A DNA stretch of 64,000 bases from Escherichia coli (lineage in GTDB: Bacteria; Pseudomonadota; Gammaproteobacteria; Enterobacterales; Enterobacteriaceae). Both the position numbers and the translations under genes were made by a program. The stretch is taken from the NCBI RefSeq assembly GCF_036507355.1, contig NZ_AP027877.1; one strand, written 5' to 3'. A model generated the notes under the pieces. It worked only from the letters and a program-made list of their open reading frames with translations. It was not told where the DNA came from and searched no databases. Position 1 is the first letter of the stretch, and the number at the start of each line of letters is the position of its first letter. Shown here piece after piece: positions 1 to 51,790 of the stretch.

Positions 1-1641
1 CGCGAACTGGCGGTACAGGTTGCTGAAGCAATGACGGATTTCTCTAAACACATGCGCGGCGTAAATGTGGTTGCCCTGTACGGCGGCCAGCGTTATGACG
101 TGCAATTACGCGCCCTGCGTCAGGGGCCGCAGATCGTTGTCGGTACTCCGGGCCGTCTGCTGGACCACCTGAAACGTGGCACTCTGGACCTCTCTAAACT
201 GAGCGGTCTGGTTCTGGATGAAGCTGACGAAATGCTGCGCATGGGCTTCATCGAAGACGTTGAAACTATTATGGCGCAGATCCCGGAAGGTCATCAGACC
301 GCTCTGTTCTCTGCAACCATGCCGGAAGCGATTCGTCGCATTACCCGCCGCTTTATGAAAGAGCCGCAGGAAGTGCGCATTCAGTCCAGCGTGACTACCC
401 GTCCTGACATCAGCCAGAGCTACTGGACTGTCTGGGGTATGCGTAAAAACGAAGCACTGGTACGTTTCCTGGAAGCGGAAGATTTTGATGCGGCGATTAT
501 CTTCGTTCGTACCAAAAATGCGACTCTGGAAGTGGCTGAAGCTCTTGAGCGTAACGGCTACAACAGCGCCGCGCTGAACGGTGACATGAACCAGGCGCTG
601 CGTGAGCAGACACTGGAACGCCTGAAAGATGGTCGTCTGGACATCCTGATTGCGACCGACGTTGCAGCCCGTGGCCTGGACGTTGAGCGTATCAGCCTGG
701 TGGTTAACTACGATATCCCGATGGATTCTGAGTCTTACGTTCACCGTATCGGTCGTACCGGTCGTGCGGGTCGTGCTGGCCGCGCGCTGTTGTTCGTTGA
801 GAACCGCGAGCGTCGTCTGCTGCGCAACATTGAACGTACTATGAAGCTGACTATTCCGGAAGTAGAACTGCCGAACGCAGAACTGCTGGGCAAACGCCGT
901 CTGGAAAAATTCGCCGCTAAAGTACAGCAGCAGCTGGAAAGCAGCGATCTGGATCAATACCGCGCACTGCTGAGCAAAATTCAGCCGACTGCAGAAGGTG
1001 AAGAGCTGGATCTCGAAACTCTGGCCGCCGCACTGCTGAAAATGGCACAGGGTGAACGTACTCTGATTGTTCCGCCAGATGCGCCGATGCGTCCGAAACG
1101 TGAATTCCGTGATCGTGATGACCGTGGTCCGCGCGATCGTAACGACCGTGGCCCGCGTGGCGACCGTGAAGATCGTCCGCGTCGTGAACGTCGTGATGTT
1201 GGTGACATGCAGCTGTACCGCATTGAAGTGGGCCGCGATGATGGTGTTGAAGTTCGTCATATCGTTGGCGCGATTGCTAACGAAGGCGACATCAGCAGCC
1301 GTTACATCGGTAACATCAAGCTGTTTGCTTCTCACTCCACCATCGAACTGCCGAAAGGTATGCCGGGTGAAGTGCTGCAACACTTTACGCGCACTCGCAT
1401 CCTCAACAAACCGATGAATATGCAGTTGCTGGGCGATGCACAGCCGCATACTGGCGGTGAGCGTCGTGGCGGTGGTCGTGGTTTCAGTGGCGAGCGTCGT
1501 GAAGGCGGTCGTAACTTTAGCGGTGAACGCCGTGAAGGTGGTCGTGGTGATGGTCGTCGTTTTAGCGGTGAACGTCGTGAAGGCCGCGCTCCGCGTCGTG
1601 ATGACTCTACCGGTCGTCGTCGTTTTGGTGGTGATGCGTAA
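1..1641 (+). CDS. deaD: DEAD-box ATP-dependent RNA helicase DeaD (CsdA), 5' end outside the window
   Basis: ORF 31..1641 is in frame from position 1. Translation matches the C-terminal ~535 aa of DeaD as recalled, including the [11 protein letters not shown] repeat tail. Confidence 0.93.
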
Positions 1642-1666
1642 TCATCGCTGAACAGCGAACACAGTC

Positions 1667-1684
1667 TGTAAAATAATATATACA
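1667..1684 (+). promoter_or_regulatory. TyrR-box-like palindrome TGTAAA-N6-TATACA upstream of mtr
   Basis: Sequence tgtaaaataatatataca fits the TyrR box consensus TGTAAA-N6-TTTACA at 11 of 12 positions. mtr is a known TyrR regulon member. Confidence 0.45.
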
Positions 1685-1716
1685 GCCCCGATTTGAACCA
1701 TCGGGGCTTTTTTTCT
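1685..1716 (+). terminator. Rho-independent terminator of deaD
   Basis: GC-rich hairpin gccccgat/atcggggc with a 7-nt loop, followed by a T-run of 8, about 45 bp after the deaD stop. Confidence 0.75.
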
Positions 1717-1721
1717 GTCTT

Positions 1722-1746
1722 TTGTACTCGTGTACTGGTACAGTGC
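1722..1746 (+). promoter_or_regulatory. Putative TrpR operator in the mtr promoter (GTACT repeats)
   Basis: tgtactcgtgtactggtacag contains repeated GNACT half-site motifs resembling the trp operator. mtr is known to be TrpR-repressed. Confidence 0.4.
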
Positions 1747-1794
1747 AATACATAACAACGCAGTCGCACTATTTTTCACTGGAGAGAAGCCCTC

Positions 1795-3039
1795 ATGGCA
1801 ACACTAACCACCACCCAAACGTCACCGTCGCTGCTTGGCGGCGTGGTGATTATCGGCGGCACCATTATTGGCGCAGGGATGTTTTCTCTGCCAGTGGTCA
1901 TGTCCGGGGCGTGGTTTTTCTGGTCAATGGCGGCGCTGATCTTTACCTGGTTCTGTATGCTGCATTCCGGCTTGATGATTCTGGAAGCTAACCTGAATTA
2001 CAGAATCGGTTCGAGTTTTGACACCATCACCAAAGATTTGCTGGGCAAAGGCTGGAACGTGGTCAACGGCATTTCCATTGCCTTTGTGCTCTATATCCTG
2101 ACCTATGCCTATATTTCTGCCAGTGGTTCGATTCTGCATCACACCTTCGCAGAGATGTCACTAAACGTCCCGGCACGGGCGGCGGGTTTTGGTTTTGCAT
2201 TGCTGGTAGCGTTTGTGGTGTGGTTGAGCACTAAAGCCGTCAGTCGCATGACAGCGATTGTGCTGGGGGCGAAAGTCATTACCTTCTTCCTCACCTTTGG
2301 TAGCCTGCTGGGACATGTGCAGCCTGCGACATTGTTCAACGTCGCCGAAAGCAATGCGTCTTATGCACCGTATCTGTTGATGACCCTGCCGTTCTGTCTG
2401 GCATCGTTTGGTTATCACGGTAACGTGCCAAGCCTGATGAAGTATTACGGCAAAGATCCGAAAACCATCGTGAAATGCCTGGTGTACGGTACGCTGATGG
2501 CGCTGGCGCTGTATACCATCTGGTTGCTGGCGACGATGGGTAACATCCCGCGTCCGGAGTTTATCGGTATTGCAGAGAAGGGCGGTAATATTGATGTGCT
2601 GGTACAGGCGTTAAGCGGCGTACTGAACAGCCGTAGTCTGGATCTGCTGCTGGTCGTGTTCTCAAACTTTGCGGTAGCGAGTTCGTTCCTCGGCGTAACG
2701 CTGGGTTTGTTTGACTATCTGGCAGATCTGTTTGGTTTCGACGACTCGGCTGTGGGCCGCTTGAAAACGGCATTGCTGACCTTTGCCCCGCCAGTTGTGG
2801 GGGGGCTGTTGTTCCCGAACGGATTCCTGTACGCCATTGGTTATGCTGGTTTAGCGGCTACCATCTGGGCGGCAATTGTTCCGGCGCTGTTAGCCCGTGC
2901 ATCGCGTAAACGCTTTGGCAGCCCGAAATTCCGCGTCTGGGGTGGCAAGCCGATGATTGCGCTGATTCTGGTGTTTGGCGTCGGCAACGCACTGGTGCAT
3001 ATTTTATCGAGCTTTAATTTACTGCCGGTGTATCAGTAA
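1795..3039 (+). CDS. mtr: Tryptophan-specific permease Mtr
   Basis: 414-aa ORF with multiple hydrophobic helices; matches Mtr as recalled; synteny next to deaD. Confidence 0.92.
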
Positions 3040-3047
3040 TCAGCGGT

Positions 3048-3138
3048 GCCTTATCCGACATTTCTGCTGCCTACACAATGCCTGATGCGCTTCGCTTATC
3101 AGGTCTATGTAGGACAGCGTTGCCAGCTCGGATAAGGC
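3048..3138. repeat. REP/BIME-like nested palindromic element
   Basis: Outer inverted repeat gccttatccga...tcggataaggc enclosing a REP-like core gcctgatgcgcttcgcttatcaggtc. Confidence 0.6.
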
Positions 3139-3156
3139 TTCCCGCGTTAAGACACA

Positions 3157-4164
3157 CTATCCCAACAACTCTTCCTTAACATCCATCGCCAGCTCAAACG
3201 AATGCAGCCGCGCCTGGTGGTCGAAAATCTGCCCGTTGACCATAATCTCATCGGCGTCGGTTTCGCGCAGGATCGACTGCAAGCCATGACGCACTTTCGC
3301 TTTATCACCTACCAACGACATACTCAGCGCCTGCTGCACGCCATACTGCTCAGACGGTGACCAGAACTGATCCATATTTTGAATCGGCGGCGGCAGTTGC
3401 CCGGTTTCGCCACGGCGCAGCTTCACAAAGGCTTGCTGCATTGAGGTAAACAGAAATTCAGCGTCGCGGTTGCTGTCGGCAGCGATAATATTGATGCACA
3501 CCATCGCGTATGGTTTTTCCAGTCGTGCCGACGGTTTGAAGTTGCTGCGATAAAGATGCAGCGCCTGGAACAACATATCCGGCGCGAAGTGTGAGGCAAA
3601 CGCAAACGGCAGACCAAGCTGCGCCGCCAGTTGCGCGCTGTAAAGGCTGGAGCCTAACAACCACACGGGGATTTGCTCGCCGTAGCCTGGTACCGGGCGC
3701 ACATGCGGATTGGGATCGCGGGCGTCAAACCAGTCCACCAGCTCCGCGACATCGCGGGGGAAATTATCAATATCGCCGCTCATATGACGACGTAGCGCCA
3801 TCATTGTCCGTTGGTCACTACCCGGAGCACGACCCAGCCCCAAATCGATTCGCCCCGGATAGAGTGTATTGAGCGTGCCGAACTGTTCTGCAATGACCAA
3901 CGGTGAGTGGTTAGGCAACATCACGCCGCCAGACCCCAGATGCAGCGTGGTGGTATTCGCCGCCAGATAGCCAATCAATACCGACGTGGCAGCACTGGCA
4001 ATGCCAGTCATATTGTGGTGTTCTGCCAGCCAGTAGCGATGATAGCCGCGCTTTTCAGCCAGACGGGCGAGATCGAGAGAGTGGGAGAATGCTTCTCGCG
4101 CTGAAGAACCTTCGGGAATGGGGGCCAGATCGAGTAGCGAAAACGCAATGGTTTTATCAGTCAT
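3157..4164 (-). CDS. yhbW: Luciferase-like flavin-dependent monooxygenase YhbW
   Basis: 335-aa ORF; recognised as YhbW; synteny. Confidence 0.85.
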
Positions 4165-4167
4165 AAC

Positions 4168-4238
4168 AGCTCACTTTGTTACCGATTAATCTTTAATACT
4201 GCATTAAAGAGTAGTTAAAGTTGTTAACAAAGTGAGCT
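4168..4238. repeat. Nested perfect inverted repeat between ubiV and yhbW
   Basis: 14-bp perfect arms agctcactttgtta (4168..4181) and taacaaagtgagct (4225..4238), with an inner palindrome ctttaat...attaaag. Confidence 0.7.
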
Positions 4239-5131: not shown

Positions 5132-6127
5132 TCACTGCCATTTACGGTGATACGCGCCAAGGGTGGTTTGCGTGCCTTCGGACATCGACCCGAGCGTCTC
5201 CATCCACGCGCTTTGCGGTACGAAGTTTTGCGGATCGGCCTTACAACGGTCGATAGCCTGACGCCAGACTTTCGCCACCTGGCTGACATACGCCGGGCTA
5301 CGCTGGCGGCCTTCAATTTTCACCGAAGCGATATTCGACGCCATTAACTCCGGCAGCAGTTCCAGGGTATTGAGACTGGTGGGTTCTTCCAGCGCGTGAT
5401 AGCGCTCGCCGTCCACCAGATAACGCCCTTTACATAGCGTCGGATAACCTGCGTTTTCGCCGTCCTGATAACGGTCGATCAGCACTTCGTTCAGGCGGGA
5501 TTCCAGCCCCTGCGGCGTTTGTTGCCAGCGCACGAAACGGGCCGGAGAACACGCGCCTACGGTGTTGGGCGACTCACCCGTCAGATACGACGACAGATAG
5601 CAACGACCTTCCGACATAATGCACAGGCTGCCGAAAGCAAAGACTTCCAGTGGTACAGGTGTGACCCGTGCCAGTTGTTTCACCTGATGAATCGACAACA
5701 CGCGCGGCAGCACCACGCGAGCAACGTCAAAATGGCGATGATAAAAGTTAATCGCCTCTTCATTGGTCGCCGAAGCCTGCACTGACACATGACGCTCAAT
5801 ATGCGGGTAACGCTCGGCGGCGTACTCCAGCATGGCGAGGTCGGCGAGGATCAGCGCGTCGGCACCCAGCTGCGCCGCCATATCCACGGCGCGCTGCCAA
5901 CGGGCGTAACCGTCCGGATGCGCAAAAGTGTTAATCGCGATGTGAAGTTTGCGGCGATGTTGATGGACAAAACTCACCGCTTCCTGCAATTTTTTCTCGG
6001 TAAAGTTAAGGCCGGCGAAGTGACGGGCATTGGTATCATCTTTTAGCCCGATATAAACAGCATCTGCGCCGTTTTCGATGGCCGCCTTAAGCGCCGGGAG
6101 ATTTCCGGCAGGGCAGAGCAGCTCCAT
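5132..6127 (-). CDS. ubiU: U32-family protein UbiU (YhbU), O2-independent ubiquinone biosynthesis
   Basis: ORF 5132..6154; start placed at MELLCPAGNLPALK (331 aa). Confidence 0.85.
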   Translation of the reverse strand: MELLCPAGNLPALKAAIENGADAVYIGLKDDTNARHFAGLNFTEKKLQEAVSFVHQHRRKLHIAINTFAHPDGYARWQRAVDMAAQLGADALILADLAMLEYAAERYPHIERHVSVQASATNEEAINFYHRHFDVARVVLPRVLSIHQVKQLARVTPVPLEVFAFGSLCIMSEGRCYLSSYLTGESPNTVGACSPARFVRWQQTPQGLESRLNEVLIDRYQDGENAGYPTLCKGRYLVDGERYHALEEPTSLNTLELLPELMASNIASVKIEGRQRSPAYVSQVAKVWRQAIDRCKADPQNFVPQSAWMETLGSMSEGTQTTLGAYHRKWQ

Positions 6128-10526: not shown

Positions 10527-10615
10527 CATGTCGGATGCGGCGTAAACGCCTAATCCGACCTACGGTTTGCATCGTTGTAGGCCTGATAAGACGCGGCAAG
10601 CGTCGCATCAGGCAT
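10527..10615. repeat. REP pair (BIME) between convergent yraQ and dolP
   Basis: ggatgcggcgtaaacgcctaatccgacctac and inverted gtaggcctgataagacgcggcaagcgtcgcatcaggc. Confidence 0.7.
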
Positions 10616-34741: not shown

Positions 34742-35118
<377 letters not shown>

Positions 35119-48456: not shown

Positions 48457-49767
48457 ATGTTTGATTCGACTTTAAATCCGTTATGGCAGCGTTACATCCT
48501 CGCCGTTCAGGAGGAAGTAAAACCGGCGCTGGGATGTACTGAACCGATTTCACTGGCGCTGGCGGCGGCGGTTGCTGCGGCAGAACTGGAAGGTCCGGTT
48601 GAACGTGTAGAAGCCTGGGTTTCGCCAAATCTGATGAAGAACGGTCTGGGCGTCACCGTTCCCGGCACGGGAATGGTGGGGCTGCCGATTGCGGCGGCGC
48701 TGGGGGCGTTAGGTGGAAATGCCAACGCCGGGCTGGAAGTGCTGAAAGACGCAACTGCGCAGGCAATTGCCGATGCCAAAGCACTGCTGGCGGCGGGGAA
48801 AGTCTCCGTTAAGATCCAGGAACCTTGCAATGAAATCCTCTTCTCACGCGCCAAAGTCTGGAACGGTGAGAAGTGGGCGTGTGTCACCATCGTCGGCGGG
48901 CATACCAACATTGTGCATATTGAGACGCACGATGGTGTGGTGTTTACCCAGCAGGCGTGTGTGGCAGAGGGCGAGCAAGAGTCTCCGCTGACGGTGCTTT
49001 CCAGAACGACGCTGGCTGAGATCCTGAAGTTCGTCAATGAAGTCCCGTTTGCGGCGATCCGCTTTATTCTCGATTCTGCGAAGCTAAATTGTGCGTTATC
49101 GCAGGAAGGTTTGAGCGGTAAGTGGGGGCTGCATATTGGCGCGACGCTGGAAAAACAGTGCGCGCGCGGTTTGCTGGCGAAAGATCTCTCTTCATCCATT
49201 GTGATTCGTACCAGCGCGGCATCCGATGCGCGTATGGGCGGCGCTACGCTTCCGGCTATGAGTAACTCCGGCTCGGGTAACCAGGGGATCACCGCAACAA
49301 TGCCTGTGGTGGTGGTAGCAGAACACTTCGGAGCGGATGATGAACGGCTGGCGCGTGCGCTGATGCTTTCTCATTTGAGCGCAATTTACATCCATAACCA
49401 GTTACCGCGTTTGTCTGCGCTGTGTGCCGCAACGACCGCAGCAATGGGGGCCGCCGCCGGGATGGCATGGCTGGTGGATGGGCGTTATGAAACCATCTCG
49501 ATGGCGATCAGCAGTATGATCGGCGATGTCAGCGGCATGATTTGCGATGGTGCGTCGAACAGCTGCGCGATGAAGGTTTCGACCAGTGCTTCGGCTGCGT
49601 GGAAAGCGGTGTTAATGGCGCTGGATGATACCGCCGTGACCGGCAATGAAGGGATCGTGGCGCATGATGTTGAGCAGTCGATTGCCAACCTGTGTGCGTT
49701 AGCAAGCCATTCGATGCAGCAAACGGATCGGCAGATTATCGAGATTATGGCGAGCAAGGCCAGATAA
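48457..49767 (+). CDS. cyuA: L-cysteine desulfidase CyuA (YhaM)
   Basis: 436-aa ORF; recognised as YhaM; follows cyuP by 27 bp. Confidence 0.85.
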
Positions 49768-49787
49768 ACGCCAGGTTTTGGGTATCG

Positions 49788-49895
<108 letters not shown>

Positions 49896-49900
49896 TGTCT

Positions 49901-50065
49901 TTACGCGGTAGCTTCATCCTCGGCTAAACGCGTTTCAGCATCCGCGACGATAGCTTCCAGCTCGCTCAACATCTCTTCATAGCCAAAATTTTTGGCGGTG
50001 CGAGCAGGTTCTTTCGCCACCACGGGCTTCGCTGGCTGGCGCTTTTTGGCCGATTTTTTACTCAT
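49901..50065 (-). CDS. yhaL: Small protein YhaL (54 aa)
   Basis: Below the 60-aa ORF-track cutoff. Minus-strand translation: MSKKSAKKRQPAKPVVAKEPARTAKNFGYEEMLSELEAIVADAETRLAEDEATA, with ggag RBS and up to two further in-frame ATGs upstream. Confidence 0.6.
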   Translation of the reverse strand: MSKKSAKKRQPAKPVVAKEPARTAKNFGYEEMLSELEAIVADAETRLAEDEATA

Positions 50066-50087
50066 CATCATCTCCCTGTAAAAACAA

Positions 50088-50789
50088 CTAGACAGGCAAA
50101 TCTATCAGCAAAGCGCGCAGTGGGGAATCGGCAACCAGCGTAATGTTAGCCTCGTCACGAATAAACGCCCCATCACCGCAGGTCAGCGCCGCTTTCTCTT
50201 CATGATGCGTAATCGCATGAAATTTCCCGTGAATCGATTGCAAATACGCGCGTGGTCCATGCAACTGGAAATTCGCACTTTCGCCTTTGTCGAGCACGAT
50301 ATGGTGCAGCCATACTTGCTGGCGTAATTGCAGGCTTCCCATCGCACCCTCTGGCGAGGCGATTAATTGCTGCTTGCCCATATTAAGCGCCAGCTTTTGA
50401 ATCAGCGGATTCTCTCGCTGCGGGCAGGCGTCCAGCCAAAGCTGCATTCGTGTTAACGGTTTGTCTTTGCTGAGATTGTGTTCGCTATAGCTGACACCTG
50501 GCTGGGTAGAGAGCAGCAACGCCTCTCCGGCGCTGGCCTGAACATGATTGCCTTCGCTGTCGCGATACTCTGCTTCTCCATCCAGAATCACATTTAAAAT
50601 ATCGACTTTGGGATAGGTTCGCGGCTGAAAGGCGGCACCTGGGGCCAGCACTTCCTGGTTAAGCACACGCAGGGAGGCATAGCCTAACAATTTCGGGTCG
50701 AAGTAGTGTCCAAAGGAAAAAGTATACCGGGCCTGCAACCATCCGTAGTCTGCTTGTCCACACTGCCTGGCAGTTCGGGTAGTAATCAT
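50088..50789 (-). CDS. yhaK: Pirin-like bicupin protein YhaK
   Basis: 233-aa ORF; synteny. Confidence 0.85.
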   Translation of the reverse strand: MITTRTARQCGQADYGWLQARYTFSFGHYFDPKLLGYASLRVLNQEVLAPGAAFQPRTYPKVDILNVILDGEAEYRDSEGNHVQASAGEALLLSTQPGVSYSEHNLSKDKPLTRMQLWLDACPQRENPLIQKLALNMGKQQLIASPEGAMGSLQLRQQVWLHHIVLDKGESANFQLHGPRAYLQSIHGKFHAITHHEEKAALTCGDGAFIRDEANITLVADSPLRALLIDLPV

Positions 50790-50893
50790 AATTCTTGACC
50801 TCTCTTTACTTCCTTTTATGGTAAGGGGCTGGACGCTACATTGTTAGCCAGATATTCTGCCCGGTATGTTCAAATTTCCTGAATGAGAACGAA

Positions 50894-51790
50894 ATGGCCA
50901 AAGAAAGGGCATTAACGCTGGAAGCACTACGGGTTATGGATGCGATCGATCGCCGGGGCAGTTTTGCGGCGGCAGCGGATGAGCTGGGACGCGTGCCTTC
51001 CGCACTTAGCTACACCATGCAAAAACTGGAAGAAGAGCTGGATGTGGTGCTGTTTGACCGCTCGGGCCATCGCACCAAATTCACCAATGTCGGGAGGATG
51101 TTGTTGGAGCGAGGGCGCGTTTTGCTGGAAGCCGCAGATAAACTGACTACTGATGCGGAAGCTCTCGCGCGCGGTTGGGAAACGCATCTCACCATTGTGA
51201 CCGAAGCGCTGGTACCGACACCTGCCTTTTTCCCGTTAATCGACAAACTGGCGGCAAAAGCCAATACCCAACTGGCAATCATCACAGAAGTGCTGGCGGG
51301 GGCGTGGGAACGGCTGGAGCAGGGGCGGGCGGATATTGTTATCGCGCCGGATATGCATTTTCGTTCCTCGTCGGAGATCAACTCGCGCAAGCTCTATACG
51401 TTAATGAACGTCTACGTTGCCGCGCCTGATCACCCGATTCATCAGGAGCCGGAACCGTTATCTGAAGTGACGCGTGTGAAATATCGTGGAATTGCGGTGG
51501 CGGATACCGCTCGTGAGCGCCCGGTGTTGACCGTACAGCTGCTGGACAAACAGCCGCGCTTAACGGTGAGCACGATTGAAGATAAACGTCAGGCATTACT
51601 GGCGGGGCTTGGCGTGGCGACGATGCCGTATCCGATGGTCGAAAAAGATATTGCGGAAGGGCGGTTGCGTGTCGTCAGCCCGGAATCGACCAGCGAGATC
51701 GATATTATTATGGCCTGGCGTCGTGACAGTATGGGGGAAGCGAAATCCTGGTGTCTGCGGGAAATTCCCAAACTTTTTAGCGGAAAATAA
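50894..51790 (+). CDS. yhaJ: LysR-family transcriptional regulator YhaJ
   Basis: 298-aa ORF with N-terminal HTH; divergent from yhaK. Confidence 0.85.
   Translation: MAKERALTLEALRVMDAIDRRGSFAAAADELGRVPSALSYTMQKLEEELDVVLFDRSGHRTKFTNVGRMLLERGRVLLEAADKLTTDAEALARGWETHLTIVTEALVPTPAFFPLIDKLAAKANTQLAIITEVLAGAWERLEQGRADIVIAPDMHFRSSSEINSRKLYTLMNVYVAAPDHPIHQEPEPLSEVTRVKYRGIAVADTARERPVLTVQLLDKQPRLTVSTIEDKRQALLAGLGVATMPYPMVEKDIAEGRLRVVSPESTSEIDIIMAWRRDSMGEAKSWCLREIPKLFSGK

Follow-up and report, generated by a model that had tools for sequence, protein, structure and literature searches.

Small proteins can be encoded in an operon with the larger protein that they bind, as CydX is with CydAB and KdpF with KdpABC. 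For XseB, the structure of the contact has been described: it is an alpha-hairpin which packs its helices round a partner helix into a three-helix bundle (PMC10835039). Nearer to the locus of this study, YhaJ binds the yhaK promoter and activates it, and hydroquinone and DNT metabolites act as its inducers (PMC7315121; PMC5031710). The yhaJ-yhaK literature, which deals with explosive-sensing bioreporters and with virulence regulation in EHEC and UPEC, leaves out the neighbouring gene yhaL. It is not mentioned in the published yhaJ/yhaK studies (for PMC5031710, in its accessible sections), nor in the RNA-seq and ChIP supplements on the yhaJ deletion, though yhaK is, and the 2024 EcoCyc y-ome paper places it among the uncharacterized genes (PMC11551758). 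How does yhaL compare with these systems?

The yhaL gene and its start codon

The window analysed here is a stretch of 64,000 nucleotides of Escherichia coli (contig NZ_AP027877.1). On its minus strand, an ORF of 56 codons with three leading ATGs lies at 49901..50071 (MMMSKKSAKKRQPAKPVVAKEPARTAKNFGYEEMLSELEAIVADAETRLAEDEATA in the ORF listing). A sequence-only reading of the window had pointed to a 54-aa "yhaL-like" peptide on the minus strand between the REP element and yhaK. That peptide is this ORF read from the third ATG, its placement agrees with the sequence in every detail, and the gene is in fact yhaL itself, annotated by RefSeq. Its features are:

49901..50065, minus strand: yhaL coding sequence as annotated, 54 codons plus TAA (stop at 49903-49901), beginning at the third ATG; from RefSeq and conservation
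50066..50071, minus strand: two extra in-frame ATGs 5' of the annotated start; from comparative data, the 56-aa form being rare
50072..50077, minus strand: Shine-Dalgarno (SD) sequence AGGGAG, read directly; a GGAG-type SD occurs in most of the 78 loci described below

RefSeq annotation and exact-sequence naming together make the ORF yhaL, not a "yhaL-like" gene. In the best-matching genome, E. coli GDSC2227PM (L001), the region is 99.9% identical to the window, and the homologous position carries the RefSeq CDS "protein YhaL" (3202-3366, 165 nt, 54 codons, WP_021577985.1). The exact 54-aa sequence of the window bears the name protein YhaL on 1000 contigs or more; within its 90% cluster two variants are common, with A or V at position 12, and the window has A. 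A 701-bp query around the ORF was present, with a match over at least 80% of its length, in 5394 of 5426 complete E. coli genomes, and the features beneath the matches were yhaK, yhaL ("protein YhaL") and cyuA. The gene stands between yhaK and cyuA (yhaM) on the strand of yhaK, and no essential difference separates it from yhaL of E. coli K-12. Thus the flagged ORF is an already annotated E. coli gene with no function assigned, a correct but ordinary find. As the product of a genome scan it matters little, being in every E. coli annotation. Then why was it missing from the ORF track? Most simply, and probably, the track applied a minimum length: with fewer than 60 aa, the ORF falls below the default of the ORF lister.

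Does the ORF code for a protein? Its length alone is not significant, since as many as 33 ORFs with 30 aa or more overlap the 3 kb around it; therefore the coding case rests on conservation. GTDB was scanned, one genome per species, with two conserved peptides as patterns. The scan gave 78 loci from at least 17 named Enterobacteriaceae genera, which include Escherichia, Salmonella, Citrobacter, Klebsiella, Raoultella and Kluyvera, and further Kosakonia, Phytobacter, Buttiauxella, Cedecea and Franconibacter. An intact yhaL ORF of roughly 49-66 aa was found at every one of these species-level loci (78/78). The sense frame is open in 79 of 79 sequences, and any other frame in at most 22. Column entropy, taken over 77 distinct DNA sequences of the core, is 0.32/0.29/1.29 for the three codon positions, and at invariant residues such as A38, V40 and L33 all synonymous codons are in use. 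Pooled over the core, pN/pS is 0.19 for the coding frame, whereas the two shifted frames give 1.75 and 1.82. The sequence-only reading had called the ORF conserved-looking and had proposed to check its conservation and dN/dS, a frame not conserved in related genomes being the outcome that would speak against it. The frame is conserved across Enterobacteriaceae, and dN/dS of the whole ORF within Escherichia is 0.05-0.14. Judged from this codon-level variation, yhaL is a genuine protein-coding gene under strong purifying selection, and we regard its identity and coding status as practically certain.

How far does the family extend? When 1.84 billion representative proteins were searched with an HMM, free of the peptide patterns, 75 matches were returned, almost all of them small family members, and no larger family was among the 75. 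Divergent members from this search (e.g. P0127, P0136, P0144) still keep ELEAIV. The 893-aa repeat protein P0134, also in the results, was set aside as a spurious, repeat-driven match. The YhaL family is confined to Enterobacteriaceae.

Which of the three ATGs is the start? They stand at 50071-50069, 50068-50066 and 50065-50063, which is 0, 3 and 6 nt from AGGGAG, and the optimum SD spacing is about 5-9 nt. In most of the 78 loci a GGAG-type SD lies 6-8 nt 5' of an M-S-K-K start. The number of ATGs at the start is three in E. coli and E. albertii, two in other Escherichia clades and one in Salmonella; at the position of the third ATG, a lone start codon (ATG, GTG or TTG) with S-K-K behind it is seen in Salmonella, several Citrobacter, Klebsiella, Raoultella and others. 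The 56-aa form is called on 2 contigs only. Because the comparative data and the SD spacing both favour it, the third ATG is taken as the start. On the same comparison the extra ATGs are an Escherichia-specific GAT/ATG run, and the two are probably not used. The sequence-only reading had noted a GGAG ribosome binding site and three consecutive in-frame ATGs, and both can be read in the sequence; the ambiguity that it drew from the three ATGs does not stand. Starts also vary elsewhere in the family: yhaL begins with TTG in the Citrobacter freundii complex (L019-L022, L056), and at two loci (L024, L031) a longer frame (MENNGVRLLSKK…) begins from an upstream ATG that follows the yhaK stop by only 2 nt.

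Linkage of yhaL to yhaK and yhaJ

The surroundings of yhaL consist of the following features.

50088..50789, minus strand: yhaK, a pirin-like bicupin of 233 aa (stop TAG at 50090..50088), directly 5' of yhaL; presumed first gene of the operon
50066..50087, minus strand: spacer of 22 nt between yhaK and yhaL, in which no terminator was found and which leaves no room for a promoter
50790..50893, no strand: interval between yhaK and yhaJ (PMC7315121; PMC5031710), with coordinates derived from the gene ends
50894..51790, plus strand: yhaJ, a LysR-type regulator, divergent from yhaK-yhaL, as in all 78 loci
49788..49892, no strand: two REP elements in inverted orientation, lying between the stops of the convergent genes yhaL and cyuA

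The order of yhaJ divergent, then yhaK, then yhaL is found in 78 of 78 genome loci, and the gap between yhaK and yhaL is 16-35 nt in nearly all of them. The gene further downstream varies; it is cyuA in Escherichia, Salmonella, Citrobacter and Kluyvera and is not cyuA in Klebsiella, Kosakonia, Raoultella and others. Because yhaL keeps this position after yhaK whatever lies downstream, it most likely follows yhaK as second gene in an operon controlled by YhaJ. Four further loci, which hold three divergent members and were recovered without the peptide patterns, have the same yhaK-yhaL arrangement. The order at the divergent loci is DoxX-GST-DUF805-LysR-Pirin-YhaL, which corresponds to yqjF-yqjG-yhaH-yhaJ-yhaK-yhaL. 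In these four loci (L080-L083) the order yqjF(DoxX)-yqjG(GST)-yhaH(DUF805)-yhaJ-yhaK-yhaL is kept over about 1-3700, thus the known YhaJ target yqjF and the yhaK-yhaL pair make up one conserved island. In GDSC2227PM, an IS1A insertion (5146-6020) lies just past yhaJ and adjoins a truncated DUF805 pseudogene (yhaI/yhaH region).

Clean intrinsic terminators follow the yhaL stop at 26-70 nt in 29 of the 78 loci; in E. coli, REP elements occupy the place of these terminators. A stop-loss allele of YhaK (P0281, 243 aa) is carried by 141 E. coli contigs. Its TAG is changed to CAG, it adds QLFLQGDDDE across the gap, and it stops at a TAA which overlaps yhaL codons 2-3, so that yhaK and yhaL overlap in those strains. 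Taken together, the gap, the synteny, the downstream terminators and the stop-loss allele make a bicistronic yhaK-yhaL transcript the parsimonious reading, and from spacing and synteny we consider co-transcription of the two genes likely.

The REP copies 3' of yhaL are at 49788-49824 and 49858-49892, as recognised from inverted repeats and the REP consensus; their repeated nature is further borne out by the 701-bp query, which in the median E. coli genome matched at 29 places. Another copy, with 3 mismatches, is at 10530-10563. The copies beside yhaL (49758-49899) give sub-threshold matches to naRNA4 (RF02564), a REP-derived nucleoid-associated RNA family (42 and 34 bits; gathering score 59.5). 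Across the whole window, the gathering score is passed by one Rfam family alone, RF00010, the bacterial RNase P RNA rnpB, which lies in full length at 34742-35118 on the plus strand (318.6 bits), and there is no Rfam family inside the yhaL ORF. A terminator-like hairpin with a T-run lies antisense within yhaL (50033-50052, plus strand). It is probably due to chance, because 3 such sites were found where 2.0 are expected.

What is known of the expression and phenotype of yhaL? Its RNA has been detected and is higher in long-term stationary phase (PMC7406224), its transcript overlaps the convergent cyuA transcript (PMC12288877), and the gene is among those under selection in Salmonella transposon data (PMC3487940). 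The literature searched, including the Mori 2021 proteome supplements, gave no evidence on translation, proteome or partners of YhaL. A link to fluoroquinolone tolerance was considered and set aside: yhaL is truncated in an evolved line, but the MG1655 yhaL deletion is viable and is not among the strains named with altered ofloxacin tolerance. A deletion of yhaK raises yqjF induction by DNT 66-fold, and the accessible sections of that paper mention no yhaL control (PMC5031710). Since yhaL is only 22 nt downstream, yhaK deletions may perturb it, and their phenotypes, e.g. the 66-fold effect on yqjF, could partly reflect altered yhaL expression.

The YhaL helix and its candidate partners

The protein falls into two parts.

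49988..50065, minus strand: variable Lys-rich N-terminal tail, codons 1-26, predicted to be disordered; from alignment A3, AF2 and charge
49904..49987, minus strand: conserved acidic amphipathic helix, codons 27-54 (FGYEEMLSELEAIVADAETRLAEDEATA); from alignment A3, codon analysis and AF2

AF2 predicts one helix at residues 29-53 with pLDDT about 90, and no secondary structure at residues 1-28 (pLDDT 57-74). In alignment A3 (47 sequences), the N-terminal 25-30 residues are variable, the FGYEE lead-in is conserved, and M32, L33, E35, L36, E37, A38, I39, V40, A43 and R46 are invariant. The nine-residue helix core ML[ST]ELEAIV is invariant as well, and this invariance is partly due to ascertainment for ML[ST]ELEAI, which served as a scan pattern. 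The hydrophobic face of the helix is formed by Y29, M32, L33, L36, I39, V40, A43 and L47, and the invariant E35, E37, A38 and R46 sit off this face. Residues 32-40 are thus constrained on all helix faces, which we read as burial of the helix by an enclosing protein partner.

The sequence-only reading had described an acidic C-terminal helix, and this description is borne out by the AF2 model and by a net charge of -5 to -10 across the family. The lysine-rich basic N-terminus that it also described is the usual case, with a net charge of +4 to +8, but not a universal one, the family range being -1 to +8. In Kosakonia and related members (L032, L033, L040, L043, L044, L061, L064-L066), the helix is kept and the Lys-rich N-terminus is missing, the tail being near neutral (-1 to +2), as in MSSTMNFMTDPTQQ… and MNSCVTKISFES…; therefore the basic tail is dispensable for the family. 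At the other end, YhaL of Superficieibacter (L010, L012; match 4001-4198) has a C-terminal extension of ~10 residues (…DGAALSRTV, …DGVALSRTGL), found in no other genus.

Is there any known family that resembles this helix? Scans with Pfam, PHROGs and PADLOC matched no family to YhaL, and a PDB profile search gave a chance match only (a gyrase fusion, E=4.5). In NCBIfam, whose XseB models include NF002140, NF002141 and TIGR01280, YhaL of the window matched two XseB models only, at residues 22-44 with E of 0.025-0.04. Across the family, NF002141 was matched by 26 of 47 members with a best E of 1.5e-4, there were also matches to four further XseB models, and unrelated families came up once or twice. 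Membership in XseB was rejected: the best score of the window protein, 14.4 bits, is far under the XseB cut-offs of 71 and 92, the Pfam XseB model PF02609 matched 0 of 47 members at E<=10, and the two-helix alpha-hairpin of XseB (~80 residues) is not found in YhaL, which has one AF2 helix and ends at residue 54. No XseB was among the matches of the HMM search through 1.84 billion representatives. A pairwise BLASTP comparison of YhaL with XseB brought up nothing (E=15), so that only profile methods see the resemblance. With a profile of 17 enterobacterial XseB sequences, hhalign aligned YhaL 27-45 to XseB 9-27 at 47% identity (P=2e-4, probability 46%). The invariant XseB residues F11, E12, L15, E17, L18, E19, I21 and V22 fall on the conserved YhaL positions Y29, E30, L33, E35, L36, E37, I39 and V40, in keeping with the XseB helix-1 motif F-E-x-x-L-x-E-L-E-x-I-V, which is found in YhaL. 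In a shuffle control the real sequences have a median of 8.1 bits, while the 99th percentile of the shuffled ones is 5.0, and in the reciprocal test the values are 9.3 bits and a shuffled maximum of 5.2; by these controls the match depends on residue order. One JGI record calls a YhaL homologue "exonuclease VII small subunit". We read the motif resemblance to XseB helix 1 as real, though weak; it may come from common origin or from convergence.

How might YhaL act? We propose that yhaL would be co-transcribed with yhaK from the YhaJ-activated promoter, on induction by hydroquinone and DNT metabolites, and that its product would be a 54-aa cytoplasmic binding module, in which a single acidic amphipathic helix (29-53) follows a tail that is disordered and usually basic. 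A constraint of the ML[ST]ELEAIV core on every helix face would be expected if a protein partner encloses the helix. The likeliest partner would be a component of its own module, YhaK or YhaJ, and YhaL would tune the quinone/electrophile response and not act as an enzyme. For the whole chain, from a YhaJ-controlled operon with yhaL in second place after yhaK to a helix that binds a partner in the module, we see the chances as balanced; that the partner lies within the YhaK/YhaJ module is a tentative assignment, at best evenly balanced. YhaK has been crystallised alone (PDB 2VEC, titled "pirin-like protein YhaK"). A genome-paired AF2 model of a YhaK-linker-YhaL fusion gave no sign of docking, but the model is poor overall (mean pLDDT 58), and in it the pLDDT of the YhaL helix falls from about 90 to about 78.

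Other explanations must be weighed against this one. The conserved feature might be DNA or RNA, such as the yhaK 3' UTR, a terminator region or an "excludon" buffer against cyuA, with the ORF incidental to it. The REP elements 3' of yhaL and the listing of yhaL-cyuA as a convergent overlapping transcript pair (PMC12288877) would suit such a feature. But variation sits at third codon positions while the amino acids are fixed through synonymous changes, the dN/dS is low (0.05-0.14), the sense frame alone stays open, no Rfam family lies inside the ORF, and yhaL is kept though cyuA is missing downstream in roughly half of the loci. The codon-level analysis, the open-frame counts and the Rfam scan lead us to reject an RNA element or an antisense gene, and we consider an incidental ORF extremely improbable. 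If YhaL is then a protein, it might act alone, as a small stress or stationary-phase protein whose Lys-rich tail binds nucleic acid or ribosomes and whose helix self-associates as a short coiled coil. Such a role would fit the tail charge of +4 to +8 in most members, the heptad-like spacing of the hydrophobic face from Y29 to L47 (Y29, M32, L33, L36, I39, V40, A43, L47), the higher transcript level in long-term stationary phase (PMC7406224) and the selection in Salmonella transposon data (PMC3487940), though for a gene of 165 nt the transposon signal may be a short-target artefact. It is unlikely, because conservation is lowest in the basic tail, which Kosakonia-type members lack, the invariant residues lie on all helix faces and not on a coiled-coil seam alone, and the strict linkage to yhaK would be left unexplained.

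The XseB resemblance raises a further possibility, namely that YhaL is a one-helix derivative or mimic of XseB in which only helix 1 is kept. Its target would be ExoVII, with the XseA helical rod or XseB as possible binding sites, and the YhaJ stress regulon would in this way be tied to the repair of DNA-protein crosslinks. XseB models are the only recurrent NCBIfam matches, the hhalign result (P=2e-4) brings the invariant helix-1 positions into register, the shuffle controls hold both ways, and the JGI record name and the way XseB grips a partner helix (PMC10835039) point in the same direction. Yet about 14 bits stand against cut-offs of 71-92, PF02609 matches no member, the hhalign probability is only 46%, and no XseB came back from the full HMM search. 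Moreover, YhaL has one helix and not a hairpin, yhaL is linked to yhaK and not to xseA or xseB, and an acidic amphipathic helix of 19 residues can arise by convergence. ExoVII is reported, in titles and abstracts, to be important for quinolone survival, and the yhaL deletion has no named quinolone phenotype. An action on ExoVII is therefore doubtful. The bolder form of the idea, that YhaL is "half an XseB", a single-helix relic or mimic with the same helix-gripping chemistry placed under YhaJ control beside yhaK, is in our judgement equally a long shot. If it were true, YhaL might, under quinone or nitroaromatic stress, influence how ExoVII is assembled on the XseA rod, or alternatively clamp a helix of YhaK or YhaJ, and in either form it would be a previously unrecognised small-protein regulator in the electrophile response of Enterobacteriaceae. 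We continue to prefer a helix-binding partner within the YhaK/YhaJ module.

YhaL beside CydX, KdpF and XseB

For the y-ome gene yhaL, the analysis adds that its start is settled, that it is confined to Enterobacteriaceae, that it is under strong purifying selection and that it is inseparable from yhaK. The likeness to XseB helix 1 supplies in addition a concrete binding hypothesis. What does the comparison with the known systems tell? Like CydX and KdpF, YhaL is very short, and its gene lies immediately 3' of a larger gene, is tightly syntenic with it and has its own SD. However, CydX and KdpF are single transmembrane helices on membrane complexes, whereas YhaL is highly charged, soluble and without a hydrophobic segment. 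CydX and KdpF bind their larger partner, while an interaction of YhaL with YhaK is only proposed.

With XseB, YhaL shares the motif [FY]-E-x-x-L-x-E-L-E-x-I-V of helix 1, and both proteins are small, acidic, helical and cytoplasmic and start with M-[PS]-K-K. Unlike XseB, YhaL has a variable insertion of ~16 residues between the N-terminus and the helix, and it is a single helix which ends where the XseB turn begins, so no hairpin is formed. Its genomic context is yhaJ-yhaK and not ExoVII genes. By analogy, the packing of XseB helices on a partner helix may be a plausible mode of binding for YhaL.
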